This document shows, one piece after another, positions 8,372-57,851 of a stretch of 64,000 nt of DNA. Made by a program: the position numbers and the translations under genes. Under the pieces are notes generated by a model, which had not been told where the DNA came from, did not search any database, and saw only the letters and a list, made by a program, of their open reading frames with translations. How positions within the stretch are numbered: the first letter of the stretch is position 1; each line of letters opens with the position of its first letter. The DNA comes from Ruditapes philippinarum (Eukaryota): the NCBI RefSeq assembly GCF_026571515.1, contig NW_026862309.1:186001-250000 (forward strand), given 5' to 3'.

Positions 8372-11300
8372 GAACAGAACAGATCAGAACATATCTTTTA
8401 TTAGATTTTAGATTTAAACATAGTTTATCATCTATACATGCATTACATTGAATATAAAGGTCATGTCAAATAAATAATAAAATTAATATGAATATAAATA
8501 TTATTTACGTAAATGAAGGTATGTGTTGACAAGCAAATTAATTAACTCATTAAACAGTCGGCAATAAATTTAAATATAAAGTTTATGATAAGTCACTTTG
8601 TCGTAGCATATTCTCTCGAATTTTAAGTGCTCATTTGATGAACATCACCAAATTTGTCATTGTCTTGTGATTCACAGATCTTAGCTAGCAGTTCAATTAG
8701 CTTAAACATACTTGGTCGAAGTGTAAAATATTCATTAATATATCGTTTTCTAATGACTCTGTATCTCGCACATTTAAGCTTAAAGTGATATTCGTCCTCT
8801 ATCTCGCCATTTTCACAAATTTGACACAGTCTATATTCCCTGTCTATTCTATTATTTCCATAACGCCCGGTTTCTATGCGTAAACAGTGCGCAGATGTTC
8901 TCATTCGTGTTATGAAAAGTCTCTATGATTTGTTCAACAAGTCAGTCTAAATAATTAAGGTTCATATTCGAAATTCTCTTAAACATGTTTATATACCAAT
9001 AATACAGGTTTGCTATCAATATCACTTCTCCATTCCTGAAGTAAACAGTCAATCACTCTTTAATCAAACTTGTACCGTCAATAATACTGTCCTGTATTTC
9101 CCAAAGATATCCATATCCATAGTTTTCTAATAAAACTTTTAACTTATATGCCCAGTTCTTTTTACCATGAATAGCATCATTTAACAGCTCCTAATAAACG
9201 TTTTTAATGATACAATTATTGGAATTTAAAACTTTAATCAAGAACTTGAATATCTTAACAAAACGATTTATATAAAGCGGATAGCGCCCTAGCTCTCCAT
9301 ATACAGACACATTACTTACTGACATTTTAACATTAAGAAGTCTTTTACAAAACTTTAACTGCACTCGTTCAATTTCTTTAGCTTTTGAATTACCCCACAC
9401 TTCTGCTGCATAACTTAGTATAGATGTTACAAATGAATCAAACAGCTGACATTGAACTTTTAGAGTAAAATCAAATTCACGGATATTATAGTTTAACAAA
9501 TTCATAGCTTTCATTGCTTTACCAATTAACAATTGTTGATTGCAGTTAAAATTACCATTTGAACCAAATACAGTTCCAAGATAATTAAATGTATCTACAA
9601 TATCCAACGTTTTCCCGTCATACTCCCATTTCTCATCGTCTCTCAATGCACCTTTACGTCTAAATACCATTTTGTTTTCTCTTCATTAATCTTTAAACCC
9701 CAACGATCACAATAAATTCGTAGATTGTCTAAATCGCCATATTAAAGCAGAAAGGTACCAAGTGACATTTTTATGTTTTCGAGCAAATCGCGTTTAAAGA
9801 TTTGAAGTTCCATATCAAATCAGGTTTTTACAACATGGCAAAGAAACTTTATATTTAGATAATATTTGAATGTACATGCTCAAAAAGTTGGAAAGCTTAT
9901 ATATTACTAATAAGTGATAATTAATCAATTAAAGGAAATGGTTCCTTTTTGCACTAATAAATATTTTGACCGACAAGTGCAAGAAGGTACCATATGATCG
10001 CTTTTTGCATTGTATTATTTTTAACGTTTGCTGTCGAATATATCAAAAAAGGTACCATAATTATGGCAGTTGGCACCTTTTTGTCCCAACAATATTAACA
10101 AAAAGCATCATTTGTTTACAGTTTTATTCTACAATGATGCAAATAAAAATATTAAATTCTTGTGTTTTCAGTAAATGTCTGATACAACTATCACACTGCA
10201 TGTTTTGAAAGTCTTCCTCTGTGATAAATCTCAATGCATATGTCAAAATCTCTTACATTGTTAGTCAAAATCAGAATCATTCTCATCCGATTCCATCGTG
10301 ACATAACCCTTTTCTTTCCTGTATGTTGGCTAAGTGGCATTATAATTATGGAACTCTTTTGGGATAATTTCCTTTGCACACAAAGTAACCAAGTCATTTT
10401 TCTTTTGAAAAGAAACTGGCGGTTTGGTATCATAACTTCATATCTTGTTCACCATTTGTCCACTGATACTTTCTTTCTGTCTAGATTCTGTATTCTGAAC
10501 TTCTATTTCCATAAAATCTTCAGCATTGAAGCTGTAATTTACAAATACTGACTTTGGGTTATCCTTTGGTACCTGTATCCATTTCACATGTAGCCGGTTT
10601 ACTCTTTGTCCGTCAATGGATGTTTAGAGTCTCGGACACTGTTTTAATGAAGTATTTGAAATCAAAAACATGGTTATATTTCATTTCCACATCAATGTAT
10701 AGCTGTGATTTTCTGGCCAGTGATATAAGAGAACACAACTGAATGAAACATAATTATACAGGAATTATTTTCTTTGCCCCTTCAAGAGTCAAATTGTCAC
10801 TCAATCTGTGAGTGACCCGATACAAGAAATTTGTGATGATCAATCTTAAACTTGGAACTTGTGATAATATAAAAGAAGAGGCGCAGCTATGAACCAATTT
10901 CTGTTTTGTCCCCCGTATGAATCTGAAAAATATATTACTTATTTGACATTACCACTCTGGCAGGAAGCTATTTCACATGCCTCTCTTTGCAGTTGGTTTT
11001 ATCCCATACATGACATACAACATTTTTGTCTCATAAGGAATATACTGTCAAGTTGTGTAGCAACAGAGTTTTATTGAATAGTAAAGCTCACTCACTAATG
11101 AGCAAGGGGTTGGTACAACGGCCTTGAGATCAAAACATGCAACATAAACGCATGTGTCACCTTTTGCCCCAACTTTATTTTTAACCTTTTCTTCTTGTGA
11201 ATTTTCTTTCTGTTTTTGATGTTCAATATATTGTTCCTTGATCGTGCCATCTAGTGTGCCTACTGCCTTCCTATACGTATGTTGCTTAACAGATTTTATT

Positions 11301-13160
11301 TCCTTTTTTGACTGTCAATAGTTTACAGTTTCAACATCTTTTTAATGTTTAAGTCATAGTCATGAGATAGGTATTGTTTCTTTCAGTTTTTTTCTTGTAT
11401 AATGAGATTTCATTTTAGGAAATTACTCTATGCTGTTTCACCAATTAAACTGTATCATAATCTAGTTTATTTGTAGATGTACGCTTCCCTATCATACTTC
11501 TCCTTCCATATATCCCATGTATCTTGTTGGCAAGAGTATAGTCAATTACTTTTCTTTTTACGTCTACGTTTTTGTGAAGAAGTCATTTATACACTATCAC
11601 TATCTTCACATTGTTATCATTCCTCAATTTAAAACAGAAACAATACTCTGGGATATATTGTTATATTTGGTGTCCTTATCAACATCTAGATTGTGTATTC
11701 ATTAAAAAGCTAAAAGGTACCAAGCAAACAATTTAATATATAAAATAATCTTAAGGGTCGTAAATTCTTTGTGTGCAGAAAGGGACCATATGACACATGG
11801 TTCCTTTTTGCATTAAAAGTGCTCAAAACTTATAATAGTCATTCAATGAAAAAAGGTACTTTGTGACACTTGGTACCTTTTTGCTCAAACTGGTATACAT
11901 ATGGTACCTTTTTGCATTACTAAATGGGAAAATATTTACATTGTACCTTTTTACATAACCTTATATGTCTGTAAATAAACATGATACTACAGAGATATTA
12001 CAGATTAAAGATAACATTAAAACAAAATGAAAAATGTTAAAAAGTCATTTTTGGCCAAAATGTTGCTTGGTACCTTTTGCTTTAATGGGGCGAAATGTGA
12101 CTGCAAACCCTGAACTGTTTCAGACAGTAGAATCATATCATCAGCGTATAAAAGCAATATAAGTGTCAAGTCTGCTATATTTACACTACTATCAATATTT
12201 GAACCTAAATACAATTCTAAATCTTCGATGAAAATTGACCACAGCAGTGGCGAACATATCTCTCCTTGCTTTAGACCTACCGCTACTTCAATGAATTCAG
12301 AAAACGTATTACAGTGACGAACTTGACTTTTCACGTGCTCATACATCGACCTCACTACACGTAACATTTTTCCAGAAATTCCAAGGCCATAACGCGTTCC
12401 TATAAACGCTGTCGAAACATTTGCTCATATCAAGGAACGCAGCATACAAACGAGAGCCATTTCCAAGACATTTTTGTATTAATCCGTTTAAACAAAATAT
12501 AGCATCGACTGTGGAAAACCTTTTTTAAATCCAAACTGAGCGTCGGAAATAATTTTTTTTTCAAACGCTTATTTAACACAGATGTAAACAGCTTTGCTAG
12601 GACGCTGATCAATGTTATTACACGATAATTGTTCACATCATTTTCGTTTCCTTTTTTGAATAATGGAATAATTATACCTTACGACCATTTATCCGGGCAA
12701 AAAACCGGTATCGATTATAAGATTAAAAAGATCTGTTAAATGGCCTGTTAATATATCCCCAGATTCAATGAACAATTCATTGATTAAGTTATCAGTAGAG
12801 CCTACCTTTCCACATTTTAAAGTTTTCAAAGCCGCTAAAACTTCTGTCTCTGATATAGTATTATCTAGTTCTGAGAAGATAGGATTATCCGAATTAATGC
12901 CTTCCGACGCAAACCGTTCGCTTTCAACCTCAGTTGTGATATTAATTTCATTACTCAAGTTTATAAAATACTGGTAGAAATCACTTGTTGACAAGGAATT
13001 TCCGCGCATCCCTTTGTTTTTTTAAAAAGTACTTCCAAAAGTCTCGAGGCTTTTTCTTGCGCAAACCTTCTATCTCCTTTGATTTCGTGCTTTTATAAGC
13101 TAGTTTCTTACGATTTACGAGTCGCTTATATTCCCTTTTAAAAGTTAATAACGTTAATAA
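8372..13160 (-). mobile_element. 5'-truncated, frameshifted non-LTR retrotransposon (RTE-X/CR1-group-like), interrupted by a Sola1 element
   Basis: RT fragments NYRVITLISVLAKLF, GLKQGEICSPLLW and LLYADD; FNYLGTVF; C-terminal HCLRIETGRY..C..C..EDEYHF..C motif. The 3' end has AATAAA followed by a (TGTTC)n tail at about 8372-8403. Absent from the paralogous site near 21740. Confidence 0.85.
9735..12092 (-). mobile_element. Sola1-type DNA transposon (decayed transposase) nested in the LINE
   Basis: About 38-bp imperfect TIRs CGCC...GGCG; 4-bp TSD AAAT (9731-9734 and 12093-12096); subterminal AAAAGGTACC repeats. Relic motifs FDLKAVVPTP..YY, EIASC, SDSYGGQNRN and HKFLVSGHS. Confidence 0.8.
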
Positions 13161-15760: not shown

Positions 15761-18700
15761 TCAGTTGGTCACTCCAAATTTATACCATGAAGTTGTGTGG
15801 TATGTCTCACCAGGGCGCAATATGCTACTTGGAAAACTTGGCTGAAATAAAAAGGAACGTATTGTTTACTAACAGCAGACAGAAGGAAATAACAGTGACT
15901 GAAGAAATCCACAGTGTTTACTATATAATACTATACATTTAAAGTCTTATTTACCCTTTTATGGCACGATATTTCTGTTGCAAAGAAGAGATGTATTTTC
16001 CAAAAGTGATTCAAAATAATCAAACTTATCTTACTAAAACGCTTATTATACACGTGTATTTAACAAATTTGTGTATCAAATGAAAATAAAACAAATTATA
16101 CGTGGCACTTACTACATTAACAGAAGCTGGATAGCCTTGAGGCATGAACAAAATCCCGCCACTCTTTTTATATACAACACCGTCCTTGCATTTGGAATCT
16201 TTCAGCAAGAAGTCTAAGTAGAAACAGCTATATGCAATAAACGCAGGTTCGGTAGTGGATACTTCAATAAAACGCCCCGAGGCTGGGTGAACCGCCCTGA
16301 AGAAGAACGACTTTTTCTTATTATCAATGAATGATTCGTTAAGACATTTCTACAAAATGCTGCAAAAATGCACACAAGTGTGTAAATTACAATTATCGAT
16401 GTGTCATTAACATTAAATACATATTAATCATGCCAAGCTGATATGTAAACGGTATTTTAAAGAAGAAATCAGCTTGACTTTTTTATTTAATTTTGTATGC
16501 TAATTGTCTTACAGCTTTAAATATATATTTACAAAACCACATCAAAAACGTGTACTTGAGAATTGATCATATATGAGCTATATAGTGGTACATTAGCATT
16601 TAAAGTACATATTCAGCTTAACAAAACATACTTAGCAACCATTTTCTTCTCCCCTTTGGCTCCAGGTAAGATATAGGCCAAGTGGAGACCATCCTTGCCA
16701 GGCATTTTATCAAGAACATCGTTAAGGACTGTTGGTTTCTGGAGGTCATACATTGTTCCTGATACATTAGTTATCGTTCCTGAAACAAATTCCCCAAAAG
16801 AACATCATTTTCTCATTATCCTGTGACAAACCTGACCAATGCAAAATTGAATGTTAAGCTATATATATATATAGTTTATAATAGATATAGCGGCATCAAT
16901 TAACTATATAATCAATATATACAATATCTTTTAAGTGTGTTTTCTTATATAGTAAAGTTCGGAGCCTTTAAAGCATACCTGTTGGTATAAAGTTTTCATT
17001 GAATTCCAGATATTGCGATGCATTCATGTTCACTACATGATCACCAATATATCCACCATCCTGTAATACATTTAATAATTTCTGTAGATTGTAATTTCAA
17101 AAAATTAAAAAAGGGAACTTCTTTGTAAGCAGCGGTCTCACTTACTCCCGGCAGAGCCCAGGACCACCACGGTAAGTTACTGGGATGATCCGGGGCGATC
17201 CGGGGTGAAATTAGTGTTGCGGTCACACTTACCCTGTCAGCACTACGGTAATACGCAACTAACCACCCAGAATGCGCTCCGGACCTTCCAGGTATAGCCC
17301 AGGTGAAGCTACGGTTCATGCCGGTGCTTCCCCGGTGGTTCCCGGATGACGCAAGAAGAGCCCCGGTTGACCCAGGCAGAGCCCCGGTCGATCCAGGCAG
17401 AGCCCAGGACAATCCAGTGCAATCATCGCAAATTGTCGTGATTGTTTTGAAATGAACCGGGCTTTGCCGGGGCTCTATCGGGATCAACCGTAGCTCCATT
17501 GTCATCCTCCGGGGCTCTGCCGGCATCCTCCGGGGCTCTGTCGGCATTCACCGGGGCTCTGCCAGGATTCACTGGGGCGTAGATACCGGCTATATCATAC
17601 CTCGGTTCATCCTCGGTTTGTGCCGACAGAGCTACGGTGCTTCATCGGTGTAACCCTGGTCGTCTTTGCAGAGCTAAGGATGAAGCCCACAAAGCTTTAC
17701 TTCGCGGATCACCCCGGACCACCCCGGTGATATTAAATATTTCATTCCTTCCGGGATCGAATGCAAGATGTTCCCGGACATTCACAGACGTTGCACTGAT
17801 GTACTCCGGTTCCCGGCCGTACCCCGGTCGTTCCAAGATCACCCAGGACGTCTTTCGGGGCTCTTCCGGGGTTCTGCCGGGATTTTAGTGAGCCTGTAGC
17901 TTTAGGCTACTGCTTAAATTTCTTTAAAATGGAGCATGTTTTTCTCAAGAAAATTGCAGAAACTTGCGATGAACTATATACATTGTTTTATAGAAAAACA
18001 TATTTTCATGTTAGCTAGCGATTCCAGCTTAGATTTTATCATTTTCATACAACGTTAACTTATATCATGCAGACGTTATAAAGATAGCACGGTGCCTATA
18101 CACATTGACATTTAATTATTAAAAAACCAATACAAAAGACGGTCTAGATTTTATTTTCTACCATACAAATTTCATTTTTTATTAGATGAAGAAGTGTCGA
18201 GTCCGCTAAGTTCTAGTGAGGAACCCTTATCATGTTCTAACCTAAACTAAAGTGAGGTATGTTGTTCAAACATACGGTTTCACTTTCCGTAAAAGAAATA
18301 CATTTTAAAGAAATATATATTTTTTATTTACACTTTATCCCATTAAATATAAGGAACTATTAAAAAAGGTAACTGAAGAAAACAAAAAAAAAACAGACAA
18401 ACAAACTCTGGACGTCTATTAATTGTATTGGTTTTTGCCCCGCTTAATTCACAAAAAGTCACATGGTGAATGCAGTATTAACATTCCAGTATATGTATTG
18501 TTTTTGTAGAATAAACATTAAGGATTAATCTATGTATCATACAGCATCGTGTATCATTTCAATGAAATGTCGATATTAATATGTTAATCTTACATGTCCG
18601 GAAAGGTTCACCATGAAATGGTTTGATATATCTACAGGTGTGGGCTTGTTAGTTGTTGCCTTGTAATCAATCATGAGACCGGACTCTTCAGTTAGTTCAT

Positions 18701-21488
18701 ACGTCACGGTGATAGTTACATCTCCAGGAAATCCCTCCGAACCATCCGTGTCAACGTACTGGAGGCGGAGTTTTGTACCGTCTATTGTCCAATCAAAGCA
18801 TCTCTTGAATTGAAATATACATAATGCATATGTTATGATGAGTTAAGCTAGGTTATTTTTGTTCAAATCCTAATTGATTTCAAATTTAAAAAAATGATGC
18901 AATATTTTGATTTCAAACAAATTTTGATTCTATATAAGAATGCTTTGTATTACAATATCGTTACCCAGATTTTTCTTTATAATTTAGATGGTCGTTTTAA
19001 TGAATCGCATATGTTCAGTGCTAATTTAATTTCTTAATTCCCAAAGAAATTCATACAAATGCCCACTTTGCTCAATAGTGAGAACATCGGAAAAGTAATC
19101 TTGGGGTCACTGGACGAAATTTCCCCGTGACAATTAATTTCTAACATTGAGTCTAATGGTCATTTGTCAAAATTGTGGGATTAATAGTTGGTCGTTTTCG
19201 TAGAAATTGGCAATTACTGATATGTTATCCAGTAGTCAAACTAATTATCCAGGAAAGCCGGTTAGGTAAGTCGACCGCCGGGATATGTCTAAAATAAAAT
19301 GTGTTTTCAAAACTGGGGTATAAACCAGAAAAACAAATAAATAGATGAAATCATGAAAATATGAAAACACAAACCCTTGTTAGACCTGTGAAACCTCCAT
19401 GACAAAAATTGTTTCCTAGTAGCGGATCACACTTTGAAACATCATACTTAGTACCGTCAAGTTCAAATGTCGCACCATCTATACGGTTAGCTACTCTACC
19501 ACATATGGCGCCCATAAATGCTGGATTCGTTTCATATCCTAAAATTTGAATTGTGTAACGTACATTTTTAAATGATGAATAGAATACAAAGTGTTATTTT
19601 CATACTGATTTTGAGTTAGAATGATTGTGTAGCTTACTACTAGTATTTTGCATGCATACTTAACAAAAGTTGTTGCTTCATCTAGAGTATTAGCATCTGG
19701 ATAGGAGGCTTTTCCTTGCCATTTTAATGATCAAGCATAAAAGATAAAATATCTTGATAACGCATCAATATAATATTATTATCATTATTCTAATTGCACT
19801 CTTAAATTTATTTTCTTAGATAGATCTAAAGTTGTGATGCAAGTAGCTCCAAGTTGTTGGAGACGGTTGAGCAAATGTGGGCAATTAATAAATACAAGCC
19901 ACTATATACTTCACCATCAAAGTTGTCATATGCAAGGCATACATCTACTACTTTTCCATTTCGATCTGGTACCAAGATATCTTTTACTACACAGCCAAAG
20001 TTAAGAATATTCACTGATATTTTTCCTGCTTTCAGTGTGAATCTGCAAAGAATCAACACACCACATTTTATCTGTTAGTAAAATCTTGCAAGCAGACACA
20101 TATGATATGGGATGTGTATTAACTATCGACTGTATTCATGAACATGTCGCTATTTACATATTTTATTTTTTTTAATTTTTTATTTATACATTTTAGGAAC
20201 ATAGCACATGATACAGAATATAAAATCATACAGTTAAGAGTGTATTCATAAACATGTCGCTATTTACATATTATATTTTTTTTTATTTTTTATTTATACA
20301 TTTTAGGAACATAGCTCATGATACAAAATATAAAATCATACAGTTAAGAGATAACATATATAAATCATATATATAAAATGATATCATAAAATAAGAAGAA
20401 TAAAGATCAACAAGGCAAAGGCAACGTTCACAGGACGCCACCCCCGACACACCCAAGCAGGGCACCTAAACGGCACCAAACAAAAACCCGGAATGGACAC
20501 AGGGGCGAAAGTAGTGGGACATAAAACAGCATAAAAGAGCACACTGTTGTCATAAAAAATAATAATAATAGGTACTATGCACCTATGGATAGCCCATTAA
20601 GCAATGGGGTCCATAAAAATAAAAATACATATTTATAACCCTTTCCCCCCTAAAAAACAATGCAAATATGTAACTACATATGCAATTTTTATATGTTATA
20701 TTTATGTTAAGTCTATATATTCTATGCTGGTAACTGATCACACGCATGAATAGTTAACCCTTTCCCTCATAAGGATATTGTGAAAAATGGCCGTTTTCAT
20801 TGAAAAGCCTCCTGTTACAAGTTCAAACTGCTATGAAACTATGAAAAATGCTTAAATACTAATCAAACTTGGCACAAATTTTGACTGGACCATTGCCTTT
20901 GTAACGACATGCTCAGTCGTAAATTTTCTGTTACCATGGCAACGAGGGGACATCTCAAAATTGCCAAAAATCACTATTTTGCCTTGATTTTTTTTCATCA
21001 AAATTTATTTCAAAGTGCTGCAACTTCTCAAGGGATTGAGATAGAGTCAAAGGCTTTTCAGCGTTGGTTACACATTACCGTAGGATCAACCTGGGGTCAT
21101 TTTCAGCCTCTCAGAAGTCCAAAATTTTCTTGGCGATGACGGGGACTACCGCCCCCCTTCAACCCCCCAAACAGAAGGGGACACATCCCCTTCTGGCAAC
21201 CCCTTGATGTACCTTTTGGATGGGGGCCGCGCCGAACAAGTGATCACATTTTTTAGCAACATTTCTCAAACGAAAACATGTGTTTGGGCCCAAATAGAAC
21301 ATTTGTTTCACTATTTGAGGCCTGAAAGAGGGGGGGGGGTCAAAAGTGCGTTGTTTCGCGTATATATGAGGTAAAGGGTTAAATAGGTTAAATAAAAAGG
21401 TTTAATAAAGTCTGACTCACTTGTAAACATCTTTTCCATCTTTTGTCGTTCCAAATTTCTCTTTAACAATATCGTGTGCAGATGACAT
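15761..21488 (-). CDS. GALM: Aldose 1-epimerase/galactose mutarotase-like protein copy 2, 354 aa; exons 21488-21421, 20042-19915, 19538-19375, 18803-18594, 17060-16979, 16779-16632, 16296-16113, 15841-15761
   Basis: GT-AG exons join in phase to 1065 nt: MSSAHDIVKEKFG...GRVANRI...CHGG...EGFPG...SNHFMVNLSG...IPTG...HPASGR...LRPGETYHTTSWYKFGVTN*. Collinear with human GALM along its full length. Confidence 0.9.
17128..17901. mobile_element. GC-rich non-autonomous TIR element (PIF/Harbinger-like) in intron 4 of GALM copy 2
   Basis: Imperfect TIRs (AGCAGCGGTCTCACTTACTCCCGGCAGAGCCC / GGGTTCTGCCGGGATTTTAGTGAGCCTGTAGCT); internal CCGGGGCTCT repeats; absent from copy 1. Confidence 0.6.
20160..20665 (-). 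mobile_element. Probable poly(A)-tailed retroelement 3' fragment with a ~108-bp local duplication
   Basis: T-rich tract on the + strand (A-tail on the minus strand) and a duplicated block 20132-20350. Absent from copy 1 intron 1. Confidence 0.35.
20758..21378. mobile_element. piggyBac-type MITE, 621 bp
   Basis: TTAA-CCCTTTCCCTCATA...TATGAGGTAAAGGG-TTAA. The paralogous empty site in copy 1 (about 6039) has a single TTAA. Confidence 0.85.
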
Positions 21489-47547: not shown

Positions 47548-50500
47548 ATACCAGGACAAATACGACCCTCACTACATCAAAACAATATCTAACACTGGCT
47601 CGACTCTCACTACATCAGGACAATATCTAACACTGGCTCGACTCTCACTACACCAAGACAATATCTAACACTGGCTCGACTCTCACTACATCAAGACAAT
47701 ATCTAACACTGGCTCGACTCTCACTACACCAAGAAAATATCTAACACTGGCTCGACTCTTACTTCACCAAGACAATATCCAAAACTGGCGCGACTCTCAC
47801 TACATGAGGACAATATCTAACACTGGCTCGACTCTCACTACACCAGGACAATATCTAACACTGGCTCGACTCCCACTACAACAAGACAATATCTAACACT
47901 GACTCGACTCTCACACTACACCAAGAAAAATATCCAATACTGGCTCGACTCTCACTACATGAGGACAATATCTAACACTGGCTCCACTCTCACTACACCA
48001 AGACAATATCTAACACTGGCTCGACTCCCACTACAACAAGACAATATCTAACACTGGCTCGACTTTCACTACATCAAGACAATATCTAATACTGGTTCGA
48101 CTCTCACTACATCAAGATAATCTCTAACACTGGCTCGACTTTCAGTACAACAAGACAATATTTAACACTGGCTCGACTCTCACTACACCAAGACAATATC
48201 CAATACTGGCTCGACTTTCACTACATCAAGACAATATCCAACACTGGATCGACTTTCACTACACCAAGACAATATCAAACACTGGGCTCGACTCTCACTA
48301 CACCAAGACAATATCTAACACTGGCTCGACTCTCACTACACCAAGAAAATATCCAACACTGGCTCGACTCTCACTACATCAAGACAATATCTAACACTGG
48401 CTCGACTGTCACTACACCATGACAATATCTAAACTGGCTCGACTTTCACTACATCAAGACAATATCTAACACTGGCCTCGACTCTCACTACATCAAGACA
48501 ATATCTTACACTGGCTCGACTCTCACTACATCAAGACAATATCTAACACTGGCTCGACTCTCACTACACCAAGACAATATCCAACACTGGCTCGACTTTC
48601 ACTACATCAAGACAATATCTAACACTGGCTCGACTCTCACTACACCAAGACAATATCCAAAACTGGCTCGACTTCCACTACATCAAGACAATATCTAACA
48701 CTGGCTCGACTCTCACTACACCAAGACAATATCCAGCACTGGCTCGACTTTCACTACATCAAGACAATATCTAACACTGGCTCGATTCTCACCACACCAA
48801 GACAATATCTAACACTGGCTCGACTCTCACTACACCAAGACAATATCTAACACTGGCTCGACTCTCACTACATCAAGACAATATCTAACACTGGCTCGAC
48901 TCTCACTACACCAAAACAATATCTAACACTGGCTCGACTCTCACTACACCAAGACAATATCTAAACACTGGCTCGACTTTCACTACATCAAGAAAATATC
49001 CACCACTGGCTCGACTCTCACTACATCAAGACAATATCTAAAACTGGCTCCACTCTCACTACACCAGGACAATATCTAACACTGGATCGACATTCACTAC
49101 GCAAAGACAATATCTAAAACTGGATCGACTCTCACTACACCAGGACAATATCTAACACTGGCTCGACTCTCACTACATCAAGACAATATCCAACACTGGC
49201 TCGACTCTCAGTACACCAATACAATATCTAACACTGGCTCGACTCTCACTACATAAAGACAATATCTAACACTGGCTCGACTCTCACTACACCAAGAAAA
49301 TATCCAACACTGGCTCGACTCTCACTACATCAAGACAATATCTAACACTGGCTCGACTGTCACTACACCATGACAATATCTAAACTGGCTCGACTTTCAC
49401 TACATCAAGACAATATCTAACACTGGCTCGACTCTCACTACATCAAGACAATATCTTACACTGGCTCGACTCTCACTACATCAAGACAATATCTAACACT
49501 GGCTCGACTCTCACTACACCAAGACAATATCCAACACTGGCTCGACTTTCACTACATCAAGACAATATCTTAACACTGGCTCGACTCTCACTACACCAAG
49601 ACAATATCCAAAACTGGCTCGACTTCCACTACATCAAGACAATATCTAAACACTGGCTCGACTCTCACTACACCAAGACAATATCCAGCACTGGCTCGAC
49701 TTTCACTACATCAAGACAATATCTAACACTGGCTCGACTCTCACTACACCAAGACAATATCTAACACTGGCTCGACTCTCACTACATCAAGACAATATCT
49801 AACACTGGCTCGACTCTCACTACATCAAGACAATATCTAACACTGGCTCGACTCTCACTACACCAAGACAATATCTAACACTGGCTCGACTCTCACTACA
49901 CCAAGACAATATCTAACACTGGCTCGACTTTCACTACATCAAGAAAATATCCACCACTGGCTCCACTCTCACTACATCAAGACAATATCTAAAACTGGCT
50001 CCACTCTCACTACATAAAGACAATATCTAACACTGGATCGACATTCACTACGCAAAGACAATATCTAAAACTGGATCGACTCTCACTACACCAGGACAAT
50101 ATCTAACACTGGCTCTGACTCTCACTACATCAAGACAATATCCAACACTGGCTCGACTCTCAGTTCACCAATACAATATCTAACACTGGCTCGACTGTCA
50201 CTACATAAAGACAATAATCTAACACTGGCTCGACATTCGATACACCAGGACAATATCTAACACAGGCTCGACTCTCACTACATCAAGACAATATCTAACA
50301 CTGACTCGACTCTTAGTACACCAAGACAATATCTAACACTGGCTCGACATTCGATACACCAGGACCATATCTAACACTGGCTCGACTCTCACTACATCAA
50401 GACAATATCTAACACTGACTCGGCTCTCAATACATCAAGACAATATCTAACACTGGCTCGACTTTCACTACATCAAGACAATATCCAACACTGGATCGGC

Positions 50501-53215
50501 TTTCAGTACACCAGGACAATCTCTAACACTGGCTCGACTCACACGATATCTGGCAAATATCTAACATTGACTCGACTCTCAGTATATCAAGACAATCTCT
50601 AACACTGGCTCGAATCTAAGTACATCAAGAGAATCCCTACCACTGGCTCGACTCTCAGTACACCAGGACAATATCTAACACTGGCTCGACTCTCACTACA
50701 TCAAGACAATATCTAACACTGGCTCGACTCTCACTACATCAATACAATATCTAACACTGTCTCGACATTCACTACACCAGGACAATATCTAACACTGACT
50801 CGACTTTCACTACACCAGGACAATATCCAACACTGGCTCGACTCTCTACACCAGGACAATATCTAACACTGGATCGACTGTCAGTACACCAGGACATTAT
50901 CTTACACAGGCTCGACTGTCAGTACACCAGGACAATATCTTACACTGGCTCGACTTTCACTACACCAGAACAACTAACACTGGATCGACTCTCTGTACAC
51001 CAGGACAATATCTAACACAGGCTCTACTCTCAGCACACCAGGACAATATCTAACACTGGCTCGGCTCTTAGTACACCAGGACAATATCTAACACTGGCTC
51101 GACTCTCAGTACACCAGGACAATATCTAACACAGGATCGACTCTTAGTACACCAGGACAATATCTAACACAGGCTCGACTGTCAGTACACCAGGACAATA
51201 TCTTACACAGGCTCGACTCTCAGTACACCAGGACAATATCTAACACAGGCTCGACGGTCAGTACACCAGGACAATATCTAACACTGGCTCGACTCTCAGT
51301 ACACCAGGACAATATCTAACAACACAGGCTCGACTCTCAGTACACCAGGACAATATCTAACACAGGCTTGACTCTCAGTACACCAGGACAATATCTAACA
51401 CAGGCTCGACTCTCAGTTCACCAGGGCAATATCTGACACAGGCTCGACTCTTAGTACACCAGGACAATATCTATCACTGGCTCGACTCTCACTACACCAG
51501 GACAATATATAACACTGGCTCGACTCTCAGTACAACAGGACAATATCTAACACAGGCTCGACTCTCACTACATCAAGACAATATCTGACACTGGCTCGAC
51601 TTTCACTACATCAAGACAATATCCAACACTGGCTCGACTCTCACTAAATAAAGACAATATCTAACACTGGCTCGACTCTCACTACATCAATATAATATCT
51701 AATACTTGCTCGACATTCACTACACAAGGACAATATCTAACATTGGGTCGACTCTCAGTTCACAAGGACAATATCTAACACTGGCTCGACTCTCACTACA
51801 TCAAGACAATATCTAACACTGGCTCGACTCTCACTACATCAAGATAATATCTAACACTGGCTCGACATTTTCCTTTCACCCCGGAAAAATATTAAAAACT
51901 TTGGGTTGAAATTTTTGAAAAAAGGAAAAATCTCTTAACATGGCTTTGCTACAGAAAATCAAGGGGCCAAAATATAACATTGGCTCGACTCTTAGTACAC
52001 CAGGACACTATCTAACACTGGCTCGACTCTCAGTACACCAGACAAATATCTAACACAAGCTCGACTCTTAGTACACCAGGACAATATCTCACACTGGCTC
52101 GACTCTCAGTACACCAGGACAATATCTATCACTGGCTCGACTCTCAGTACACCAGGACAATATCTAACACTGGCTTGACTCTCAATACACCAGGACAATA
52201 TCTAACACTGGCTCGACTCTCAGTACACCAGGACAATATCTAACACTACCTCGACTTTCAGTACACCAGACAAATATCTAACACTGGCTCGACTCTCAGT
52301 ACACCAGGACAATATCTAACACTGACTCGACTCTTAGTACACCAGGACAATATATAACACTGGCTCGACTCTCAGTACACCAGGACAATATCTAACACAG
52401 GCTCGACTCTTAGTACACCAGGACAATATCTAACACTGGCTCGACTCTCACTACAACAAGACAATAACACTGGCTCGACATTCACTACACCAGGACAATA
52501 TCTAACACTGACTTGACTTTCACTACACCAGGACAATATCTAACACTGGCTCGAATCTCAGTACACCAGGACAATATCTAACACTGGCTCGACTCTCACT
52601 ACATCAAGACAATAACACTGACTTGACTTTCACTACACCAGGACAATATCTAACACTGACTTGACTTTCACTACACCAGGCCAATATCTAACACTGGCTC
52701 TACTCTCTGTACACCAGGACAATATCCAACACTGGCTCGACCTACAGTACACCAGGACAATATCTTACACTGGCTCGACTGTCAGTACACCAGGACAATA
52801 TCTTACACTGGCTCGAATGTATGTCAGTACACCTGGACAATATCTATCACTGGCTCCACTTTCACTACACCAGGACAATATCTAACACTGGCTCGACTCT
52901 CACTACACCAAGACAATATCTAACACTGGCTCGACTCTCACTACACCAAGACAATATCTAACACTGGCTCGACTCTCACTACACCAGGACAATATCCAAC
53001 ACTGGCTCGACTCTCACTACACCAAGACAAATCTAACACTGGCTCGACTCTCACTACATCAAGACAATATCTAACACTGGCTCGACTCTCACTACACCAA
53101 GACAATATCTAACACTGGCTCGACTCTCACTACATCAAGACAATATGTAACACTGGCTCGACTCTCACTAAACCCAGATAAAATCTAACTCACTATACCA
53201 GGACAAAATCTAACA
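47548..53215. repeat. 38-bp tandem satellite/minisatellite, about 149 copies (ACACTGGCTCGACTCTCACTACACCAAGACAATATCTA)
   Basis: Head-to-tail 38-bp period (for example 47592 and 47630) with no unique spacers. Confidence 0.97.

Positions 53216-53875: not shown

Positions 53876-57851
<3,976 letters not shown>

Follow-up and report, generated by a model that had tools for sequence, protein, structure and literature searches.

A maintained clam gene of the aldose 1-epimerase family with methionine in place of the catalytic base

Introduction

What does a mutarotase-fold protein do once it has lost the glutamate on which mutarotation depends? The question is raised by a gene on the minus strand of a 64,000-nucleotide stretch of the genome of the Manila clam, Ruditapes philippinarum (contig NW_026862309.1, positions 186,001 to 250,000 of the forward strand; hereafter the window, in which all unprefixed coordinates are given), whose product aligns with galactose mutarotase (GALM; aldose 1-epimerase, EC 5.1.3.3) and has methionine at the position of the catalytic base. 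In GALM, a glutamate takes the proton of the anomeric hydroxyl and a histidine protonates the ring oxygen; GalM mutants with Ala or Gln for the Glu are reported to be inactive. In the human enzyme the base is Glu307 and the acid is His176, and the sugar site is formed by seven residues, Asn81, Arg82, His107, His176, Asp243, Gln279 and Glu307, according to PMC11441068. Here we describe the clam gene and its relatives and weigh what the protein may do.

Results

The gene consists of eight exons that join in frame across seven GT-AG introns (7/7) into 1065 nucleotides, encoding 354 amino acids and a stop codon. Exon 1 (21421..21488), with the start codon at 21488, is followed by exon 2 (19915..20042), exon 3 (19375..19538), exon 4 (18594..18803), exon 5 (16979..17060), exon 6 (16632..16779), exon 7 (16113..16296) and exon 8 (15761..15841), which carries the stop codon. 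The spliced product is identical letter for letter to a RefSeq protein of R. philippinarum named 'galactose mutarotase-like' (XP_060558308.1/XP_060558309.1; P0234 in our collection). The full 354-amino-acid frame with clean splice sites that a first-pass annotation of the window had reported is therefore borne out; its placement of the altered Met and His codons in exons 6 and 7 can be made more specific, the Met codon lying in exon 7 of eight and the His codon in exon 6. A crude scan of the N terminus of the window protein found no hydrophobic stretch resembling a signal peptide, and a secreted lectin was rejected on that ground.

We mapped residues through a HMMER alignment of the window protein to the human GALM chain 1snz_A (E value 2.8e-66), allowing for the chain's two-residue offset and taking side-chain positions from the alignment. 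Half of the pocket is kept: Arg80, Asn83, Arg84 and His112, all in exon 3, correspond to human Arg78, Asn81, Arg82 and His107; His182, in exon 4, corresponds to the acid His176; and Tyr289 corresponds to Tyr281. The other half is changed, with Met318 (exon 7, codon 16145-16143) for the base Glu307, His250 (exon 6, codon 16684-16682) for Asp243, Ile287 (exon 7) for Gln279, and Phe183 and Met184 (exon 4) for Ser177 and Tyr178; beside the base, Leu replaces Cys305 and Pro replaces Thr308. Because the base site aligns without a gap, a register shift there is excluded. The altered motifs read earlier from the letters alone (GILFMPQ, GLHLAY, NHFMV and AFIAYS) each reappear in this alignment. The accompanying description of a His-rich pocket stands insofar as the pocket gains one His; the protein overall, with 8 His compared with 7-13 in four Glu-type proteins, is not His-rich.

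These replacements sit in an otherwise recognizable member of the family. Pfam PF01263 (Aldose_epim) matches the window protein at 208.5 bits, against a gathering cut-off of 27, over profile positions 2-298 of 299. An AlphaFold2 model of the protein has a mean predicted local distance difference test score of 96.2 (~96), with Met318 within the strand 315-320, and superposing it on human 1snz, a comparison that the first-pass annotation had named as a check, recovers the mutarotase beta-sandwich fold (template-modelling score 0.93; Z score 52.3; root-mean-square deviation 1.3 Å over 341 residues; 37% identity). Two NCBIfam models, galM_Leloir and PRK11055, score the window protein below their curated cut-offs, at 212 bits against 398 and at 188 bits against 240; both are bacterial models, and a Glu-type mollusc-like control (P0152) falls below the first cut-off and clears the second. 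On these alignments, the window protein belongs to the PF01263 sequence family and retains the acid His and the sugar ligands Asn81, Arg82 and His107, yet lacks the base that defines a galactose mutarotase, together with Asp243 and Gln279.

Replacement of the base is rare outside the relatives of this gene. Among 229 collected proteins of 260-480 amino acids, the base column reads Glu in 198, Met in 29, Leu in one and a gap in one, the 29 Met rows including near-identical cluster members and not amounting to 29 independent cases. When a profile of 11 Met-type proteins was compared with 1.84 billion representatives clustered at 50% identity, the top two matches were Met-type (645 and 639 bits) and the next scored 442; 142 of 147 further cluster representatives from this search have Glu at the base site, the others showing one each of Ile, Met, Tyr, Gln and a gap. 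A search of the ESM Atlas returned ordinary aldose epimerase clusters only, and a metagenome scan narrowed 406 pattern matches to one locus. As judged from the sequences gathered, loss of the Glu occurs sporadically elsewhere, and only in the clam group does it mark a lasting family.

Outside the clam clade, the Glu has been lost separately in five proteins (P0311, P0251, P0104, P0340 and P0373). Two of them, P0311 and P0251, resemble the clam proteins in having Pro directly after the base site, and in P0251 the Gln279 site is occupied by Glu. P0311, with its Met-Pro, was considered as kin of the Met-type clade and rejected, as it sits among bacterial-type rows on a long branch of the maximum-likelihood tree.

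In that tree of 58 rows (rooted at the midpoint only, and with the Glu-type loci of the Ruditapes genome left out), 16 Met-type rows form a single branch with support of 100/100 and a stem of 0.47, within the mollusc-type group. The branch splits into subclade A (motif LFMPQ; support 99/97), which comprises the window gene, two proteins of Mactra antiquata, one of Mya arenaria and four Logan clusters, and subclade B (motif IEFMPM; support 100/100), which comprises a second Ruditapes gene, two Mercenaria proteins, one each from Mactra, Mya and Dreissena, and two Logan clusters. The five genera belong to several families and presumably span two clam orders. The window protein shares 73% identity with the Mactra A protein, 66% with the Mya A protein and 49% with the Ruditapes B protein. 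The gene for the last lies on the minus strand of another contig (G000:C15357; L009:2512-8676), and its product has Met for the base, with Glu two positions before it, and Cys for Asp243. On this tree the Met-type proteins are an old, two-branched clam subfamily and not a one-off.

The changes in the pocket are shared across both subclades. In all 29 Met rows Arg78, Asn81, Arg82 and Tyr281 are kept (29/29), and His107 and His176 are kept in 28/29, whereas Asp243 and Gln279 are kept in none (0/29) and the base is Met wherever a row reaches the site (29/29). The whole altered half (the positions of Met318, His250, Ile287, Met184 and Phe183) is fixed throughout the clade, except that the His250 position alternates between His (21 rows) and Cys (8 rows), with Cys found in both subclades. 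At least 13 of 14 A and B proteins agree at 110 sites, of which eight are specific to the clade: Pro104 (encoded in exon 3), Asp138, Asp178, Phe183, Met184, Cys303, Met318 and Gly321. Among 13 A and B proteins, invariant residues occupy 7 of 10 sites in the pocket, compared with 79 of 354 sites overall. Two of the clade-specific residues, Asp138 and Asp178, both encoded in exon 4, are Asp in 14/14 clade proteins, whereas 340 Glu-type proteins mostly have Ser (95%) at the first position and Asn (96%) at the second. Together with Asp140 and Glu143, the two Asp might make up a cation-binding site outside the pocket.

The two subclades differ two residues before the base, at the Cys305 site, which should share a strand face with the base site: subclade A has Leu in 18/18 rows, and subclade B has Glu in 10/11. 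Because of this Leu, the aligned A proteins lack a carboxylate both at the base site and next to it, and no nearby Glu would step in for the lost one. The upstream Glu of subclade B is a candidate for a relocated catalytic base. The sole B row that lacks it, the Mercenaria protein P0142, also has Gln for His176.

The window gene is complete, and purifying selection acts on it. Compared over exons 4-7 (175 codons) with the metagenome locus L011, which has the same intron sites, the proportions of non-synonymous and synonymous differences are 0.20 (pN) and 0.74 (pS), giving a ratio of non-synonymous to synonymous rates (dN/dS) of about 0.07, with dS near saturation; compared over 291 codons with the L001 sister copy on the same contig, the gene shows 18 synonymous and 12 non-synonymous differences, for a dN/dS of 0.19. 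With an intact frame and ratios well under 1, it does not have the marks of a pseudogene. The paralog tree and these ratios had been suggested as checks, and together with the clade-wide fixed changes they uphold the proposal that the gene is maintained. Relatives of both subclades occur as full frames of 350-356 amino acids on Logan contigs of 1,125-3,272 bases, one of them differing from the Ruditapes B protein by 2 residues; because these contigs are too short for a gene with such introns, they are likely to be spliced transcripts. For the window gene itself, none of the 24 rows listed by a search of sequencing runs was recorded as RNA; 14 were contig sets guessed to be RNA, with small shares (0.14-0.17), and are counted as no evidence. 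In challenged hemocytes of the Manila clam, a probe named 'Aldose 1-epimerase', which does not distinguish the paralog, was down 3.88-fold according to PMC4234419.

The same contig (G000:C10796) carries three subclade A copies in tandem: the window gene, copy 1, and a copy in the neighbouring stretch L001. Copy 1 (6135-2053, minus strand) does read GLHLA, as had been noted, although it is full of indels: as assembled, six of its eight exons contain frameshifting indels, and exon 4 has 19 gap columns. These may reflect either a pseudogene or uncorrected sequencing error. The L001 copy (L001:3386-7050, minus strand) has frameshifting indels in exon 7 as assembled, which may likewise mark a real pseudogene or long-read error; P0010, a RefSeq-type protein of 271 amino acids, is this copy ending after exon 6. 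Compared with both sister copies and the other aligned subclade A proteins, the window copy alone has Cys102, one inserted residue and Phe110 within residues 102-110 (exon 3), in the loop before His112, possibly a fresh divergence after the tandem duplication. Two intron stretches of the window gene, at about 17110-17920 and 20130-21390, are unmatched in the sister copies, the first being GC-rich with short 21-base repeats; both are likely mobile-element insertions.

Elsewhere in the genome, two loci on G000:C3384 keep all seven sugar-site residues (Asn, Arg, His, His, Asp, Gln and Glu), and one on G000:C5183 keeps the His and the Glu but has Gly at the Asn81 position. Because these Glu-type loci are present in the same genome, the clam presumably does not depend on the Met-type gene for mutarotation.

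The rest of the window contains an alpha-amylase-like frame of 387 codons (55735-56898, minus strand) with Pfam matches to the catalytic and C-terminal domains, a carbohydrate-digesting gene some 34 kb away from the one described here, and a 38-base satellite of about 148 copies (47563-53189) that explains the strong GC skew there. Between copy 1 and the mutarotase-like gene lie a reverse-transcriptase fragment (12017-12424; PF00078) and a frame at 9191-9682 (minus strand) for which a Pfam search found no match.

Discussion

The proposal that this gene does not encode an ordinary galactose mutarotase is supported by the Glu307-to-Met replacement, its fixation across the clade and the low dN/dS. 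What the protein might do instead is a matter of weighing several readings. Our tentative preference, which we hold at a little short of even, is that the window protein would be a cytosolic, non-mutarotating binder of a sugar or glycoside. We favour it because the residues that grip the ring are kept, the anomeric side has become hydrophobic, and a Glu-less GalM from Lactococcus lactis crystallizes with sugar. The titles of the PDB entries for the L. lactis mutants E304A and E304Q (1ns2, 1ns0, 1ns4) name galactose or glucose, which argues that a pocket without a base can still hold a sugar. On this reading a duplicate GALM would have been remodelled once in a clam ancestor and then split into subclade A, with the window gene, and subclade B, while the Glu-type genes would have retained the Leloir-pathway job. 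Met318 could not take the anomeric proton, so a galactose ring would likely be neither opened nor flipped. The kept residues would still grip a pyranose ring, and the changed half (Met318, His250, Ile287, Met184 and Phe183) would line a hydrophobic cavity at the anomeric side, one that might accommodate a sugar whose C1 or C2 is blocked or substituted, such as a glycoside, an N-acetyl sugar or a deoxy sugar.

Several observations weigh against a mere binder. The restriction of the Asp243 site to His or Cys, with Cys present in both subclades, would suit a metal ligand or a catalytic group better than a hydrogen bond to sugar. Almost every Met row keeps the acid His, which an enzyme would require, and three acids, Asp138, Asp178 and Asp247, are fixed in subclade A. 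The near-constant Glu at the Cys305 site of subclade B, whose lone exception has lost His176 as well, hints that B at least may be catalytic.

The strongest counterweights are this alternation at residue 250 and the fact that one B paralog has lost its Glu and its His together, and because of them we treat a new enzyme as a serious possibility, if still a doubtful one. His250, replaced by Cys in some clams, would act as base or nucleophile opposite His182, or else His112, His182, His/Cys250 and Met318 would hold zinc or copper; the substrate would not be a free aldose, and subclade B might use its upstream Glu. The near or complete invariance of His107, His176 and the Met would fit such an enzyme, as would a long stem followed by renewed constraint, a pattern expected from a gain of function. 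However, Cys, Thr, Val and Asn occur at the Asp243 site in Glu-type proteins too, which suggests that the site is loose in molluscs, and the Arg and Asn residues that grip sugar are kept as in a sugar pocket. The full metalloprotein version, in which those four residues would bind zinc or copper within the old sugar pocket to run a reaction not known for aldose 1-epimerases, and in which A and B would each be a specialized form, we consider unlikely.

We would also be surprised to find a slow or re-targeted mutarotase in which water or His250 stands in for the Glu. The fold and acid His are intact, the Pfam score is far above its cut-off, and variation at Asn81, Asp243 and Gln279 is already seen among Glu-type paralogs of molluscs. 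Those paralogs with altered pockets nevertheless keep the Glu, as do relatives at large (198/229 and 142/147); Met cannot accept a proton; and the genome holds Glu-type loci.

Less probable again is a structural or partner-binding protein that has ceased to bind any small molecule in its pocket, a role ascribed to the subunit with the mutarotase fold in the NDH complex of chloroplasts. Chains of the NDH-photosystem I supercomplex (9grx_2 and 7wff_b) do share the fold (Z scores of 18-19), and Ruditapes, Mactra and Mya have each retained both A and B, but the concentration of invariant sites in the pocket indicates that selection centres there. A decaying duplicate, or an artefact of sequencing or alignment, is scarcely credible: frameshifting indels do occur in the assembled sequence of the two sister copies, but the same Met-Pro recurs in five clam genera and in intron-free Logan contigs, the window gene has a full frame, GT-AG introns and a low dN/dS, and one clade of two subclades in several clam genera is defined by the same rebuilt pocket, which argues against decay.

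Returning to the sugar binder, the closest precedents each match it in part. Human GALM (PF01263; PDB 1snz/1so0) shares the fold, the length and the kept residues with the window protein, which departs from it in the altered pocket half, in the neighbours of the base and in a short insertion in the loop before His107. The L. lactis GalM mutants E304A/E304Q and D243A/D243N (1ns2, 1ns0, 1ns4, 1nsm, 1ns8) retain the fold while lacking either the base or the Asp, and their entry titles list bound galactose or glucose, but they are engineered single changes, unlike the several natural changes fixed under selection in the clam proteins. The chloroplast NDH subcomplex B subunit in 9grx_2 and 7wff_b, presumably the non-catalytic PnsB2, also reuses the fold outside mutarotation; at 10-13% identity it is far more diverged, whereas in the clam protein one half of the sugar pocket has stayed invariant. 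The plant aldose 1-epimerase-like protein NbAELP is likewise a mutarotase homolog whose roles extend past the Leloir pathway, but PMC5622589 describes it as having a signal peptide and all five active-site residues, and the clam protein lacks the Glu and the Asp and showed no signal-like stretch in the scan. We found no account of a Glu-less clam mutarotase subfamily in open-access full text, and subscription papers or supplements may list it as an expression or proteomic hit.

The His/Glu pair is taken as the defining machinery of aldose 1-epimerases, and here a natural subfamily in clams has done away with the Glu, remodelled the pocket on its anomeric half, undergone duplication and persisted. 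The database names 'galactose mutarotase-like' and 'Aldose 1-epimerase' are probably wrong as statements of function for its members: a textbook enzyme appears to have lost its catalytic base and yet been kept for another role. Because the protein is small and apparently soluble, with a confident model, that role is open to bench work, and the answer would give a sugar sensor of the cytosol or else a reaction new to a textbook fold.

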